Shown here one piece after another: positions 3,243-10,454 of a stretch of DNA of 14,435 nt. Position 1 is the stretch's first letter. Every line of letters begins with the position of its first letter. This stretch comes from a virus. The stretch lies in UHGV virus genome UHGV-0124609; one strand, given 5' to 3'. The translations under genes were made by a program, and so were the position numbers. Below the pieces are notes generated by a model. The model did no database searches, was not told where the DNA came from, and saw only the letters and a list, made by a program, of their open reading frames with translations.

Positions 3243-3299
3243 ATTATAATTCCTTCAGCAAGTAATTTGGCCTCGGCGCTCTAACGTCGGGGCTTTCTT

Positions 3300-3533
3300 T
3301 TATTCCAGGTCTTCTAAAGTAGCGGTCATTCCGCGAACTTCAGCGACAGCACTATATTTCCCGCCGACATTTTTCACGACACCGGATTTAACCAACACCT
3401 TCAATGACCCTTCAATGATGGCGGAACTATAGTACTTAAAATAACTGCGGCGCAAGTCGATAACACTGCACGACCCTTTTTTACGTGTTAATGAAACGAC
3501 CGCCGTAAATACGCGTGACTGGAACTCGGTCAT
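3300..3533 (-). CDS. hypothetical small protein (77 aa), possibly winged-helix DNA-binding; translationally coupled to the upstream AlpA-like gene
   Basis: Complete ORF whose start overlaps the stop of the upstream gene by 4 nt (ATGA). The assignment of a winged-helix fold is a weak guess from the pattern SLKVLVKSGVVKNVGGKYSAV. C-terminus …TATLEDLE resembles the primase C-terminus. Confidence 0.7.
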   Translation of the reverse strand: MTEFQSRVFTAVVSLTRKKGSCSVIDLRRSYFKYYSSAIIEGSLKVLVKSGVVKNVGGKYSAVAEVRGMTATLEDLE

Positions 3534-3700
3534 TTCACGTTCTCCTTAATCCACGCTTCCACTTTCTCCGGGTCAAACGTACCTGGCTGCCGGCGGCCCA
3601 TAATGCGGGTACAGCAATCAGGGAACTTCCCGCTCTTTAACCAGTTATTCAGCGTGCGACGAGTAACCCCGATGCGCTCTGCTACTTCATTCTGCGTCAT
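3530..3700 (-). CDS. AlpA-family-like HTH DNA-binding protein (phage transcriptional regulator/excisionase-like), 56 aa
   Basis: Translation MTQNEVAERIGVTRRTLNNWLKSGKFPDCCTRIMGRRQPGTFDPEKVEAWIKENVK matches the AlpA/HTH_17 pattern (HTH, then FP, then a conserved W). ATG at the revcomp of 3698-3700 has SD GAGGG with a 7-nt spacer; the ORF track's longer form starts at TTG 3727 with no SD. Confidence 0.8.
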   Translation of the reverse strand: MTQNEVAERIGVTRRTLNNWLKSGKFPDCCTRIMGRRQPGTFDPEKVEAWIKENVK

Positions 3701-3732
3701 TCTCAAACCCTCATTATCAGTTAACAAAATCG

Positions 3733-3761
3733 AGTATACATTGCGAATAATGGGAAATCAA
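3733..3761 (-). promoter_or_regulatory. sigma70-like promoter for the leftward AlpA/primase operon (TTGATT-N17-TATACT)
   Basis: On the minus strand, -35 TTGATT is the revcomp of 3756-3761 and -10 TATACT the revcomp of 3733-3738, with a 17-bp spacer; about 30 nt upstream of the ATG at 3700. Confidence 0.5.
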
Positions 3762-4041
3762 ACATAATCGCACCTATTGACATTATGAAAATCTTCGTTT
3801 AAGGTGCTTCTATATCTTAGTTACTTTGATTCTTGTTCACCTTGTAAACCCCGCCGAAAACGAGCGCCCAACGCGAAGTGTTAGGCGGCAGTTTACTGAA
3901 CATAAGAATTATCGTAACTTTCCTTCCTTAATATCTCCGGTTGCCCTGGGCAAGCTCTATTCTCATCGGCAGCATATCTCTTAAGTAACTGATTTTCTTA
4001 ATGTACCGTAGATTCACAACCGTAAAAATGTAACCCTTACC

Positions 4042-4065
4042 GGGCAGGCTTAAGGCCTGCCCTTT
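4042..4065 (+). other. stable stem-loop (GGGCAGGC-TTAAG-GCCTGCCC) followed by TTT within the non-coding region; possible terminator of a small transcript or structural element
   Basis: 8-bp perfect GC-rich stem at 4042-4049/4055-4062, 5-nt loop, then TTT at 4063-4065. No plus-strand ORF lies upstream of it. Confidence 0.3.
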
Positions 4066-4134
4066 AGTTACCAAGTAATAAGAATAAAGGCACAACCCTA
4101 CCTGAAGAATCACAACGGCAATGTAACTATTCTC

Positions 4135-4163
4135 TTGCACACCCCAACATAATAGGATACTAT
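4135..4163 (+). promoter_or_regulatory. promoter TTGCAC-N17-TACTAT driving the rightward early small-gene block
   Basis: -35 TTGCAC at 4135-4140, 17-bp spacer, -10 TACTAT at 4158-4163; identical hexamers and spacing recur at 5401-5429. The ATG at 4198 lies about 30 nt downstream. Confidence 0.5.
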
Positions 4164-4197
4164 TCACTTATCGAAACGAGACATAAGGAATTTAGAA

Positions 4198-4416
4198 ATG
4201 AACAAAGCGACCGCAAGCGTAGTTTCCGCAATCAAAGAAGTTTACGGCATCGATATTTCAGAGCGCGTAATCATCGGTAATAAGCGCAACTTCTTTACGT
4301 TCGACACCGACGGAATGGATGAAAATGATTTTATCAACGTACAACGTTTCGCTAATGATAGAGGGCTTCGTAACGAGCCTGCAGGTTACAAGAAATTCGC
4401 TATCTACTTTAAATAA
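4198..4416 (+). CDS. hypothetical protein, 72 aa
   Basis: Complete ORF; ATG 4198 preceded by a purine-rich leader (AACGAGACATAAGGAATTTAGAA); first gene downstream of the 4135-4163 promoter. Confidence 0.8.
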   Translation: MNKATASVVSAIKEVYGIDISERVIIGNKRNFFTFDTDGMDENDFINVQRFANDRGLRNEPAGYKKFAIYFK

Positions 4417-4434
4417 GACAGAGGAGTGATGGTT

Positions 4435-4623
4435 ATGTTTAAGAAGGGTCAGTTGGTCAAAGCTGTAAATAGCAATTATTTCATTGTTGAAAGCGAGTCT
4501 GCAGTTTTTCCGAGGGCTTATAGAGTAAGTTTTATACGGGAAAGATTAGGAGCGGTAACTTGGTTCCGTGAAGATGAGCTAACACTCATCGGCAACAATT
4601 TTAAATTCAAAGGGGCGAAGTGA
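4435..4623 (+). CDS. hypothetical protein, about 62 aa
   Basis: ORF 4426-4623 in the track; ATG 4435 is best placed relative to SD GAGGAG at 4421-4426 (8-nt spacer). Alternative in-frame starts are GTG 4426 and ATG 4429. Confidence 0.75.
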   Translation: MFKKGQLVKAVNSNYFIVESESAVFPRAYRVSFIRERLGAVTWFREDELTLIGNNFKFKGAK

Positions 4624-4899: not shown

Positions 4900-5094
4900 A
4901 TGAGCCCGTATAACAAATTTCGCTTACGCCGTCTTGTTGGTGGTCTGCGCGCCGCCGAGTTTGGTGTTGAATGTTGGGAAAAGGCGAAATATACCCCATG
5001 GAAGTCGTGGCATTTGGTTCATGCTAAGGCGGTAGCACAGTACCGTGAGTACAAGTTAAACAGTTTCCTTAAGCACCACGGGGTTGAGTTATGA
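4900..5094 (+). CDS. hypothetical protein, 64 aa
   Basis: ATG 4900 with SD GGTGGAGG at 4887-4894 (5-nt spacer). In-frame alternative starts at GTG 4870 (SD GAGGGAGG), ATG 4885 and ATG 4834 cannot be excluded. Confidence 0.65.
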   Translation: MSPYNKFRLRRLVGGLRAAEFGVECWEKAKYTPWKSWHLVHAKAVAQYREYKLNSFLKHHGVEL

Positions 5095-5252
5095 GAGAAG
5101 CATTTGAACGGTGGGCCGTCGTAGAGGGTCTGCCGGTTAACAAGGGTTCGAAGAAAGAGTACCTGACCGTTAAGACACGTCTTGCGTGGCGGGCGTGGAA
5201 AGCTGGTGTGCAATTTCGTGCTGGTGTAACAGGTGGTGTAACAGGTCAATAG
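5091..5252 (+). CDS. small hypothetical protein, 53 aa (not in the ORF track)
   Basis: ATG 5091 overlaps the upstream stop (ATGA); frame open to TAG at 5250-5252. Translation MREAFERWAVVEGLPVNKGSKKEYLTVKTRLAWRAWKAGVQFRAGVTGGVTGQ; the C-terminal GVTGGVTG comes from a tandem repeat. Confidence 0.5.
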   Translation: MREAFERWAVVEGLPVNKGSKKEYLTVKTRLAWRAWKAGVQFRAGVTGGVTGQ

Positions 5253-5274: not shown

Positions 5275-5333
5275 TACGCTGCTACACAGCAGCGTACAAC
5301 TTTAACTTAGTGTCGTCAAAAGGCGACACTTTT
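5275..5333 (+). terminator. pair of stem-loops after the first early-gene block; the second is followed by TTT(T)
   Basis: Hairpin 1: 9-bp perfect stem at 5275-5283/5288-5296 with a 4-nt loop and no U-tract. Hairpin 2: 7-bp stem at 5309-5315/5324-5330 with an 8-nt loop, followed by TTT at 5331-5333. Confidence 0.35.
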
Positions 5334-5400
5334 CACCAAACGCAACAATCGAAGCGACTATTGCAGGAGATGCAACAATACAAACACCAATAAAATTTAC

Positions 5401-5429
5401 TTGCACACTGGGATAGAATAGACTACTAT
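5401..5429 (+). promoter_or_regulatory. promoter TTGCAC-N17-TACTAT with an AT-rich upstream element
   Basis: -35 TTGCAC at 5401-5406, 17-bp spacer, -10 TACTAT at 5424-5429; AT-rich CCAATAAAATTTAC immediately upstream; ATG at 5461 lies 32 nt downstream. Confidence 0.55.
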
Positions 5430-5460
5430 TCATTTACACGAACGAGAGGATAGACAGAAG

Positions 5461-8179: not shown

Positions 8180-8245
8180 CACCTAAGACCAATCCGACGA
8201 TACTTAAATCACCTCCTGCTCCATCCCTCTGCTCTCCAGTTTTAT

Positions 8246-8277
8246 CCCGGCCCTGACCCAGCCGGGATTTTTTTTTA
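8246..8277 (+). terminator. strong rho-independent terminator after the lysis cassette
   Basis: Stem CCCGGC/GCCGGG at 8246-8251/8261-8266 with a 9-nt loop, followed by ATTTTTTTTTAT. Confidence 0.75.
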
Positions 8278-8298: not shown

Positions 8299-8328
8299 TT
8301 GACTATTACCTACGACCCTACTATATTT
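8299..8328 (+). promoter_or_regulatory. sigma70-like promoter (TTGACT-N18-TATATT) for the 8361-10328 block
   Basis: -35 TTGACT at 8299-8304, -10 TATATT at 8323-8328; the AACGAGA leader motif at 8339-8345 and ATG 8361 follow. Confidence 0.5.
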
Positions 8329-8360
8329 ACTTCGCCGACAACGAGAACGGGGTAGAGAAG

Positions 8361-10328: not shown

Positions 10329-10337
10329 CCAATAACA

Positions 10338-10362
10338 AGCCCTCTACGGAGGGCTTTTCTGT
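10338..10362 (+). terminator. rho-independent terminator (AAGCCCTC-TACG-GAGGGCTT then TTCT)
   Basis: 8-bp perfect stem at 10338-10345/10350-10357, 4-nt loop, then a T-rich tail. Confidence 0.65.
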
Positions 10363-10389
10363 ACATCCCACCCAATCCACTTATATAAT
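10360..10389 (+). promoter_or_regulatory. candidate promoter for the packaging operon (TGTACA-N18-TATAAT)
   Basis: Consensus -10 TATAAT at 10384-10389; weak -35 TGTACA at 10360-10365. A palindrome follows immediately downstream. Confidence 0.4.
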
Positions 10390-10395
10390 CCCTTT

Positions 10396-10414
10396 AGACG
10401 CGTAGGGCGCGTCT
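10396..10414. promoter_or_regulatory. perfect inverted repeat AGACGCG-N5-CGCGTCT between the promoter and the terS start; candidate operator or 5'-UTR hairpin
   Basis: 7-bp arms at 10396-10402 and 10408-10414 with a 5-bp spacer; a third direct AGACGC half-site lies at 10432-10437. Confidence 0.4.
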
Positions 10415-10454
10415 GGTGCGCTCTGATGGTCAGACGCATATGCAAGGGGATTCT

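Follow-up and report, generated by a model that had tools for sequence, protein, structure and literature searches.

A predicted gene-less transcription unit with a conserved RNA fold in the divergent control region of a lytic Kagunavirus

Introduction

In bacteriophage lambda, the pR′–6S RNA–tR′ unit yields a gene-less RNA of ~200–250 nt from a host-type promoter, and this RNA ends at an intrinsic terminator ahead of the lysis and virion block that lies in the same direction; a conserved leader fold is not known to be needed there, and read-through requires Q bound in the promoter spacer. The put RNA of phage HK022, of ~70 nt and without coding capacity, forms two adjacent hairpins after an early promoter and upstream of terminators. 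The early leader of T7 combines strong host promoters with a long untranslated stretch and with RNase III sites, irregular hairpins of ~60 nt with an asymmetric internal loop that lie between genes on a polycistronic mRNA. Structured transcripts or strand-specific hairpins also occur beside replication genes, as in RNA II of ColE1 and the ssiA/ssiB sites of RSF1010, the latter being primase recognition hairpins with an invariant base and a tip that is free to vary. Loading of Q at lambda pR′ has been summarised (PMC7969949), and in Pseudomonas aeruginosa the small helix-turn-helix (HTH) protein AlpA loads at promoters to bypass leader terminators, which lie at +54 (alpB) and at +26 and +247 (PA0807) (PMC7969949; PMC9371919). 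Here we describe a locus that bears comparison with each of these, the noncoding gap at positions 3701–4197 of a 14,435-nt stretch of the virus genome UHGV-0124609 (the whole stretch analysed, hereafter the window). Judged from sequence, this gap is the sole divergent control region of a lytic Kagunavirus genome. We favour, with moderate confidence, the reading that the product of a rightward promoter within it, P1, is a discrete, early-made regulatory noncoding RNA.

As at lambda pR′, a gene-less RNA would end here at an intrinsic terminator ahead of a lysis and virion block in the same direction; here, however, the fold is maintained by compensatory change, no Q-like protein was identified, a second rightward promoter (P2) follows directly and early rather than late genes come next. 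As with put, two hairpins would be transcribed after an early promoter, upstream of terminators and in a stretch without coding capacity, but they measure 101 nt and 32 nt, are parted by a 21-nt pyrimidine-rich linker and share no sequence similarity with put, and any effect on termination is conjectural. The locus is like the AlpA system in having a small HTH gene beside the promoter and terminators in the untranslated leader before the first gene of a long operon, the terminator-like hairpin lying at ~+230 from the predicted P1 start; in contrast, the HTH protein of the window matches HTH_17 only, and nothing conserved beyond a TTCGT was recognised in the P1 spacer. With T7 it shares strong host promoters, a long untranslated stretch and an irregular hairpin with an asymmetric internal loop, any cleavage here being conjectural. 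As in ColE1 and RSF1010, a structured transcript or strand-specific hairpins would lie beside replication genes, one of which encodes a helicase domain, AAA_25, that is presumably of the family of the RSF1010 RepA helicase; here, however, there are no iterons and no second hairpin on the opposite strand, and origin activity is only conjectural.

Results and Discussion

A conserved promoter-like site precedes a stretch without a gene

Alignment of relatives placed P1 back-to-back with the leftward promoter PL and 15 bp from it (Table 1). The original prediction, made from the letters of the window alone, had overlooked it. The −35 hexamer is TTGACA in 31/33 distinct sequences, the −10 is TAAGGT or TAAGTT in 31/33, and the spacer is 17 nt long in 31/32. 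The window's P1 agrees with the consensus at 6/6 positions of the −35 and 3/6 of the −10 (A2 and T6 kept) and falls under our scan threshold. Between genera the spacer varies, except for a TTCGT adjoining the −10. Two database records bear on the same place: the curated record of phage Jersey (KF148055) independently annotates a promoter exactly there, and that of fBC-Eco01 lists across the gap, in order, a predicted host promoter at the P1-equivalent place, a terminator and a 'phage promoter'. In phages K1H and Bas75 the downstream sequence is unrelated, yet a strong rightward promoter is retained at the P1 place. We infer a transcription start near 3812.

No convincing open reading frame (ORF) had been recognised on either strand of the gap, and this is borne out by the relatives. 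Only two ORFs of ≥40 aa occur in it, at 3826–3984 (plus strand, TTG start, 52 aa) and 3928–4167 (minus strand, GTG start, 79 aa); they are intact in 4/27 and 2/27 non-redundant relatives, respectively, and neither matched anything in Pfam or PHROG searches. A conserved small ORF in related phages, a finding that would have told against a noncoding locus, was looked for in these 27 genomes: no ORF of ≥20 aa is conserved among them, the best being kept in 10/27. Moreover, the 5′ domain of the unit shifts in length between lineages (+7, −3, +8, +9 and +4/+5 nt), and reading frames are therefore broken. We therefore hardly credit an unannotated small protein gene within the gap, against which these broken frames, the poor retention of ORFs and the lack of Pfam and PHROG matches all count. 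In its favour are scattered annotations of short ORFs, which are mutually inconsistent (106 aa on the minus strand in Bas73; short ORFs in Kenya-K2 and VT223), and a 10-codon ORF at 4001–4033 that is retained in Jerseyviruses; the latter has no Shine-Dalgarno sequence, which again speaks against a gene.

This 10-codon ORF (MYRRFTTVKM) stops 8 nt before the terminator stem and is positioned as an attenuator leader peptide would be. In Jerseyviruses it reads MCRRFATVKM, or runs to 12 codons following a 1-nt deletion. Conservation of the DNA may have kept it by chance.

Conserved structure of the predicted RNA

The RNA predicted to start at P1 has a minimum free energy of −71.2 kcal/mol (z = −4.19 against shuffles). 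A search of the window against Rfam 15, at gathering and at permissive thresholds, matched no family; the best sub-threshold match, Hrs12 (23.8 bits against a threshold of 70), fell on the terminator alone. The 5′ domain was compared in an alignment of 34 distinct sequences (A1; positions 3806–3995 of the window), in which it comprises a long irregular hairpin (SL1), a pyrimidine tract and a second hairpin (SL2). A covariance model of this domain (R1) finds one copy per genome, including one in the annotated relative UTEC10.

In SL1 the basal stem, AGUUAC/GUAACU, is invariant and a 5′ bulge, CCUU, is conserved; folded alone, the hairpin scores z between −2.7 and −7.3 across six lineages. Above the base, the helix GUUCA/UGAAC becomes GUUUCA/UGAAAC in Jerseyviruses, a U inserted in the 5′ arm being matched by an A inserted in the 3′ arm, and the fifth pair of the helix GUAAA/UUUAC is G-C, A-U or U-A. 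The upper part shows at least seven unrelated helix sequences among 23 distinct sequences, all of them self-complementary: CCGCC/GGCGG, CGCUUAA/UUAAGCG, UGUUUAACCC/GGGUUAAACA and CCGCUUGA/UUAAGCGG, together with CCGCUU/AAGCGG, CGCUUA/UAAGCG and CUUAGCG/CGUUAAG. The consensus pairs of A1 are formed in 99.6% of alignment cells, compared with 31–53% when the partners are slid. In a second alignment (A2), 17 pairs are altered on both sides, against 12.5 ± 1.4 in shuffles (0/500 reach 17) and 2–7 with slid partners; A2 was built with model R1 and leans towards it, so the comparison of the SL1 upper sequences was given more weight. Helices are kept by compensatory change, as is expected of a structured RNA.

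In SL2, 98.6–98.9% of cells are paired, and four pairs vary on one side and only via G-U. A shorter hairpin at 3941–3953 was rejected in favour of SL2, since a U to C change at its first position disrupts this shorter form but improves the long one. The tract between the two hairpins varies almost purely in C and U (CCUUCCUUA, CCUCCCUAA, CCCUCCUUA and others). In the form UUCCUUCCUUAA it resembles an anti-Shine-Dalgarno sequence, a likeness from which a role might be drawn, and the variant CCCUCCUUA contains CCUCCUUA, which we take to be the 3′ end of 16S rRNA. A boxA-like GCUCUAUUC after SL2 was set aside; many Jerseyviruses have GCUAUAUUC there, which we judged too far from the boxA consensus.

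Several measures point to the plus strand, on which the fold probably forms. In each of three sequence sets the consensus fold of the plus strand is more stable than that of the minus strand (−13.2 vs −9.3, −26.7 vs −20.7 and −43.8 vs −36.5 kcal/mol). The minus-strand consensus folds of all sequences and of Kagunavirus do not recover SL2, and in 5/6 lineages SL1 has its better z-score on the plus strand. This bias is consistent with an RNA made from P1 and, taken alone, equally consistent with single-stranded DNA of the plus strand.

Table 1. Features of the gap and of the adjoining leftward genes (positions in the window).
Feature	Position	Strand	Basis or remark
Predicted P1 transcript, ~257 nt, noncoding	3812–4068	+	No conserved ORF; fold
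P1, predicted sigma-70 promoter	TTGACA 3777–3782, 17 nt, TAAGGT 3800–3805	+	Alignment of relatives
SL1, 101-nt irregular hairpin	3819–3919	+	z-score, pairing, compensatory changes
SL1 upper part, hypervariable	3850–3890	+	At least seven helix sequences
Pyrimidine tract UUCCUUCCUUAA	3920–3931	+	Between SL1 and SL2
SL2, UUGCC-C-UGGG...CUCA-UC-GGCAG	3941–3972	+	11 pairs
Terminator-like hairpin	Stem 4042–4062, tail UUUAGUU to 4069	+	Predicted 3′ end of the P1 unit
3′ module A, exchangeable	3996–4070	+	Other phages: B, C, or A plus C
PL, predicted sigma-70 promoter, TTGATT, 17 nt, TATACT	3733–3761	−	Scan and conservation
P2, predicted promoter, CTTGCAC-N17-TACTATTCA...AACGAGA with dyad AATAG-N4-CTATT	4134–4181	+	Repeat family
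Direct repeat, copy 1, AGATTCACAACCGTAA	4010–4025	+	Imperfect; holds ACCGTA/CACAAC words
Direct repeat, copy 2, AGAATCACAACGGCAA	4106–4121	+	Just upstream of P2
HTH protein gene, 56 aa	3530–3700	−	HTH_17/excisionase type; ATG 3700
77-aa protein gene	Left of gap	−	PHROG 5169
Primase-helicase gene, 746 aa	Left of gap	−	Helicase domain AAA_25

Short repeated words had been remarked in the gap. The GTAAC words at 3914, 3985, 4030 and 4123 were confirmed; with GTTAC at 3820 and 4067 they make six in 330 bp, where ~1.1 would be expected from the density in the window. Four of the six are helix arms (3820 with 3914 at the base of SL1; 4030 with 4067, flanking the terminator), while the word at 3985 is GTATC in most relatives and that at 4123 lies in a conserved block before P2. 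The ACCGTA and CACAAC words are likewise present (ACCGTA at 4005 and 4019; CACAAC at 4015, 4091 and 4111), two of the positions first given being off by 1 nt (4019 for ACCGTA and 4015 for CACAAC). They belong in part to one imperfect direct repeat of 16–27 nt (Table 1), the copies of which are 81% identical and both conserved where module A is present. An inverted repeat at 3780–3793/3991–4004 (93% complementary) is not conserved in Jerseyviruses and was taken as chance. Outside the gap, a tandem repeat GGTGTAACAGGT GGTGTAACAGGT at 5214–5246, at the end of the ORF 5091–5252, adds to the local excess of GTAAC.

Such words raise the question of whether the conserved blocks, among them AGTTACTT and, 95 bp away, AAGTAACT, could be DNA sites for HTH regulators, the gap consisting of promoters and operators only and the P1 RNA being a by-product. 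The invariant basal arms of SL1 are each near-palindromic (AAGTWACTT), words of the form GTWAC occur in excess, genes for two HTH regulators lie nearby and the P2 family has an operator-like dyad. Sites for proteins would nevertheless leave unexplained the compensatory changes, the paired insertion, the at least seven upper SL1 sequences that always pair and the plus-strand bias of SL2, and we regard this account as improbable.

The predicted 3′ end of the unit and its exchange between phages

The rightward promoter that the original prediction placed at 4135–4163 (TTGCAC, 17 nt, TACTAT) is weak by consensus (7/12) and was not reported by our scan, yet it is conserved and belongs to a repeated motif of ~35–48 nt, the P2 family. 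Copies in the window lie at 4134–4181, 5396–5447 and, in a looser form, ~8299–8346, and the −10 part recurs at 733–741, ahead of a Cro-like gene. UTEC10 has six copies of the core TACTATTCA, three of which precede opposite-strand 'moron' genes inside the virion arm. The same motif was found by PHIRE in seven copies in phage fBC-Eco01 (PMC9825357). P2 is predicted to drive the first rightward genes.

The dyad AATAG-N4-CTATT over the −10 of this family is operator-like. A P2-type copy precedes the Cro-like repressor gene (770–985), which hints at shut-off of early promoters by that repressor and at its autoregulation.

A stem-loop with a T run at 4042–4065 and nothing coding upstream, as first reported, is indeed present. 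The stem (4042–4062) has 9 pairs, 7 of them G-C, with a loop of 3 and the tail TTTAGTTACC; in the longer tail UUUAGUUA, 5 of 8 residues are U, but only 3 are consecutive. One stem pair shows a compensatory change (C-G to U-A in Jerseyviruses), the GUAAC at 4030 and GUUAC at 4067 are able to extend the stem, and the equivalent hairpin is annotated as a terminator in the fBC-Eco01 record. It ranks second among the terminator-like sites of the 14.4-kb window and is located 73 nt ahead of P2. The other two full P2-family promoters similarly lie ~35–65 nt past terminator hairpins (5311–5332 before 5396; 8242–8266 before 8299). Because hairpins precede the other full P2-family promoters, and given its rank, 4042–4068 is most likely the end of the P1 unit, apparently the only unit to contain no gene.

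The strongest terminator-like hairpin of the window is a different one, at 3269–3294 (plus strand; 10 pairs, then TTCTTTTATT); it lies between the primase-helicase and 77-aa genes, antisense to the leftward operon.

Beyond ~3995 the sequence is modular. Module A, with the hairpin at 4042, is present in 27/36 sequences, the window included; module B (sequences L007 and L010, and K1H) carries a long hairpin followed by UUUU; and module C, in seven Jerseyviruses, has a hairpin CUUGCC-UUAC-GGCAAG without a U tract. Some Jerseyviruses have A and C in tandem. The three modules are mutually unrelated in sequence, and their junctions coincide with GTAACTGA-like words. The 5′ domain is tied to the left module, in which the promoters and the HTH and replication genes lie, and the 3′ modules assort freely: K1H combines a 5′ domain of its own with module B, and Bas75 one of its own with module A. 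Model R1 gave no hit on either of these two phages, and a shared fold could not be demonstrated. Both K1H (L030, 1110–1500) and Bas75 (L031, 1222–1500) retain long hairpins and a CCUCC-type pyrimidine motif (ACCCUCCUUCA and CAACUCCUCCC, respectively).

This arrangement bears directly on whether the RNA acts only on its own transcript. In a cis-acting leader, the 5′ domain would set read-through past the 4042 hairpin and later terminators, by attenuation or processive antitermination, via RNA alone or a phage protein loaded at P1; alternatively it could be an RNase III processing or stability element. We consider this possible though doubtful; it is the closest rival to a discrete RNA, chiefly because phages with module C lack the terminator. 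Phages that have another module in place of the terminator module (B), or that lack it (C only), still keep the 5′ domain, and in C-only phages nothing would stop P1 transcripts before the genes. The element also stands right after a promoter and right before terminator-like hairpins, at the head of a long rightward arm with further terminators at ~5311–5332 and 8242–8266. Moreover, in K1H and Bas75 the 5′ domain has changed type in concert with the promoter and HTH module, and a precedent exists in the small HTH protein AlpA of P. aeruginosa, which loads at a promoter to bypass leader terminators (PMC7969949). Against a leader, P2 follows directly and later units have their own promoters, including a candidate before the small terminase gene (terS; 10360–10389), so that no read-through from P1 is required. 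The HTH protein matches neither the Phage_AlpA family nor solved AlpA, the expected place of an AlpA- or Q-type site, the P1 spacer, is poorly conserved between genera, and the size and layout of the two hairpins are unlike those of put.

The HTH protein was examined for this likeness. It matches HTH_17 (E = 2e-7) and, below the cut-off, the NCBIfam excisionase domain; Phage_AlpA (PF05930) was absent even at E up to 10, and no AlpA in the PDB matched. An AlpA identity is accordingly not supported, nor is the label that the leftward gene had first been given.

Is the gap a replication origin?

An origin had been the other suggestion for this gap, and it has gained nothing from the analysis. The gap contains no tandem repeats, no iteron array (two-copy short repeat families only) and no DnaA boxes, the motif TTWTNCACA occurring once in the window, at 1219, outside the gap; four of the six GTAAC/GTTAC words are helix arms. 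One exact copy of TGTTCACC, which we take to be the P4 iteron, lies in the gap (3834) and one elsewhere, a count at chance level, and a P4-type origin, which would have multiple such iterons, was rejected. The cumulative GC-skew minimum lies near 4200, as expected since transcription diverges there. The region had been described as a 470-bp AT-rich noncoding stretch at 3728–4197: it is noncoding, but its left edge is at 3701 and the AT-richness is mild. GC content is 0.40–0.43 in the gap against ~0.50, and low GC continues through coding DNA to ~4650; therefore, AT-richness is not a mark of the gap.

An origin could still take another form, in which DNA hairpins on the strand displaced by P1 transcription serve the primase-helicase as initiation or loading sites, or P1 transcripts prime synthesis. 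The gap adjoins the replication operon, is the sole divergence point and coincides with the skew minimum; in K1H and Bas75 a change in the type of 5′ domain goes along with a change of replication-gene module, the behaviour expected of an origin and its initiator; the G-T pairs that the plus strand allows are compatible with single-stranded DNA; and the fixed base and free tip of SL1 resemble primase recognition hairpins such as ssiA/ssiB of RSF1010. On the other side stand the lack of iterons, tandem repeats and DnaA boxes, an AT-richness that is mild and extends outside the gap, a skew minimum that follows from gene orientation alone, a single TGTTCACC at chance level, and a promoter of fixed geometry directly upstream with a U tract past the last hairpin, which are features of RNA. 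An origin at the gap is not supported by these features, and we hold it to be unlikely.

A model for the P1 RNA

A small noncoding transcript ending at the hairpin, raised originally as an alternative to an origin, has gained support: P1 lies ~230 nt upstream of the hairpin, no conserved ORF intervenes, the helices are compensated and the hairpin is positioned as a terminator. We therefore return to a discrete regulatory RNA. According to this model, PL would fire leftward and P1 rightward, host RNA polymerase firing P1 early and transcribing the gene-less unit of Table 1. In phages with module A most P1 transcripts would stop at 4068, after which P2 would restart transcription for the first genes. 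The working part would be the 5′ domain, in which SL1 and SL2 may keep the pyrimidine tract exposed for binding of a partner in trans, either a purine-rich RNA (ribosome-binding sites, for example) or a protein.

Several observations weigh against this model. The −10 of P1 agrees with the consensus at only 3/6 positions, the U tract after the hairpin (UUUAGUU) is short, and the lower helices are near-invariant and hence carry little information on structure. The plus-strand G-U evidence would fit a hairpin of single-stranded DNA equally well, and in K1H and Bas75 an unrelated sequence replaces the 5′ domain. No pairing partners of the pyrimidine linker were found above shuffled queries in the whole genomes of UTEC10 and the Jerseyvirus SE2; the target would therefore be host-encoded or the interaction not a simple duplex. 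In Jerseyviruses with module C only (L026–L029 and others) there is no U-tract terminator past the 5′ domain, and the P1 RNA would therefore extend through P2 to the genes; this is more in keeping with a leader than with a discrete small RNA. Transcript data for Guernseyvirinae were not found in the literature searched, which left out most subscription journals, and searches there for transcriptome, origin or small-RNA reports on these phages returned nothing relevant.

A further variant, quite unlikely in our estimation, is that SL1, the tract and SL2 form a self-sufficient RNA device acting on the expression machinery of the host. In one version, by a mechanism like that of put with an unrelated fold, the polymerase starting at P1 would be made resistant to the terminators of the rightward arm. 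In the other, the anti-Shine-Dalgarno-like tract would compete with ribosomes for their binding sites. Under this variant the hypervariable SL1 tip would be a surface that is either neutral or caught up in an arms race.

Gene content and conservation of the surrounding region

A distant DNA search placed the window in Kagunavirus (Guernseyvirinae), lytic siphoviruses of Escherichia coli. The closest annotated record is that of phage vB_EcoS_UTEC10 (94% identity across 3502–4457). No near-identical match to the window was found in 5,426 complete E. coli genomes, and it is therefore neither a prophage nor a host element. In the complete UTEC10 map the arms of the genome diverge at the gap and nowhere else, the leftward arm holding the replication genes and the rightward arm the early genes, the lysis genes and nearly all virion genes.

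Matches to the gap were found in 448 phage records; its identity is 90–95% in Kagunavirus and 75–90% in Salmonella Jerseyvirus, which equals or exceeds that of the flanking genes. Against SE2, the noncoding parts are 74–90% identical and the flanking genes 68–85%, while the rightward early genes have no DNA match. When 185,579 species genomes and JGI/ENA metagenomes were scanned for exact patterns, the returns were Guernseyvirinae-like contigs, chance hits and one Bacteroidota contig only. The last (L083; NZ_JACVEL010000022.1, from an assembly of Taishania pollutisoli) has a Jerseyvirus 5′ domain that does not differ from the one in Salmonella phages and is most likely assembly contamination.

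To the left of the gap, the start codon of the HTH gene is ATG 3700, which is preceded at a distance of 7 nt by GAGGG and is also the start annotated in relatives; TTG 3727 was rejected as its start on these grounds, and the gap therefore runs from 3701 to 4197. PL, which had been proposed at the same position, was detected by our scan, and among distinct sequences its −35 is conserved in 33/33, its 17-nt spacer in 31/31 and its −10 in 30/31. It is predicted to serve the operon of the HTH, 77-aa and primase-helicase genes. The primase-helicase had no match among PDB sequences. A scan for tRNA and tmRNA genes found none.

To the right, small early genes start at 4198. The first of them, 4198–4416 (PHROG 7673), is limited to the window, UTEC10 and the lineage of L005 and L010. 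In K1ind1, Bas73 and most others, P2 is followed directly by the conserved MFKKGQL gene, whose ATG in the window is at 4435. Further along, at 10337–10415 and just before the small terminase gene, a hairpin (10337–10356), a sigma-70 match (10360–10389; TGTACA, 18 nt, TATAAT) and a second hairpin make a candidate late promoter with a structured leader.

Conclusions

Parts of this control region were already on record, promoters and a terminator having been predicted by software in two database records and the P2 motif having been published from PHIRE. Neither the conserved gene-less unit nor its fold is described in Rfam or the literature searched, where we also found no experimental study of gene regulation in Guernseyvirinae. 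The element would rank as a phage-encoded structured noncoding RNA or leader.

Phages of the Guernseyvirinae (Kagunavirus and Jerseyvirus) are among those most often isolated on E. coli and Salmonella, and they are used in phage therapy, in food-safety preparations and as small chassis for synthetic biology. The analysis, computational throughout, provides a concrete map of their single control region, on which PL and P1 are followed by the structured RNA unit without a gene, its terminator and the P2 family, and it points to a conserved RNA at a place that genome annotations leave blank or fill with spurious small ORFs. If this RNA is regulatory, experiments and engineering could target it cheaply and directly; if it is instead an element of an origin, it would be equally relevant to rebooting or minimising these genomes.

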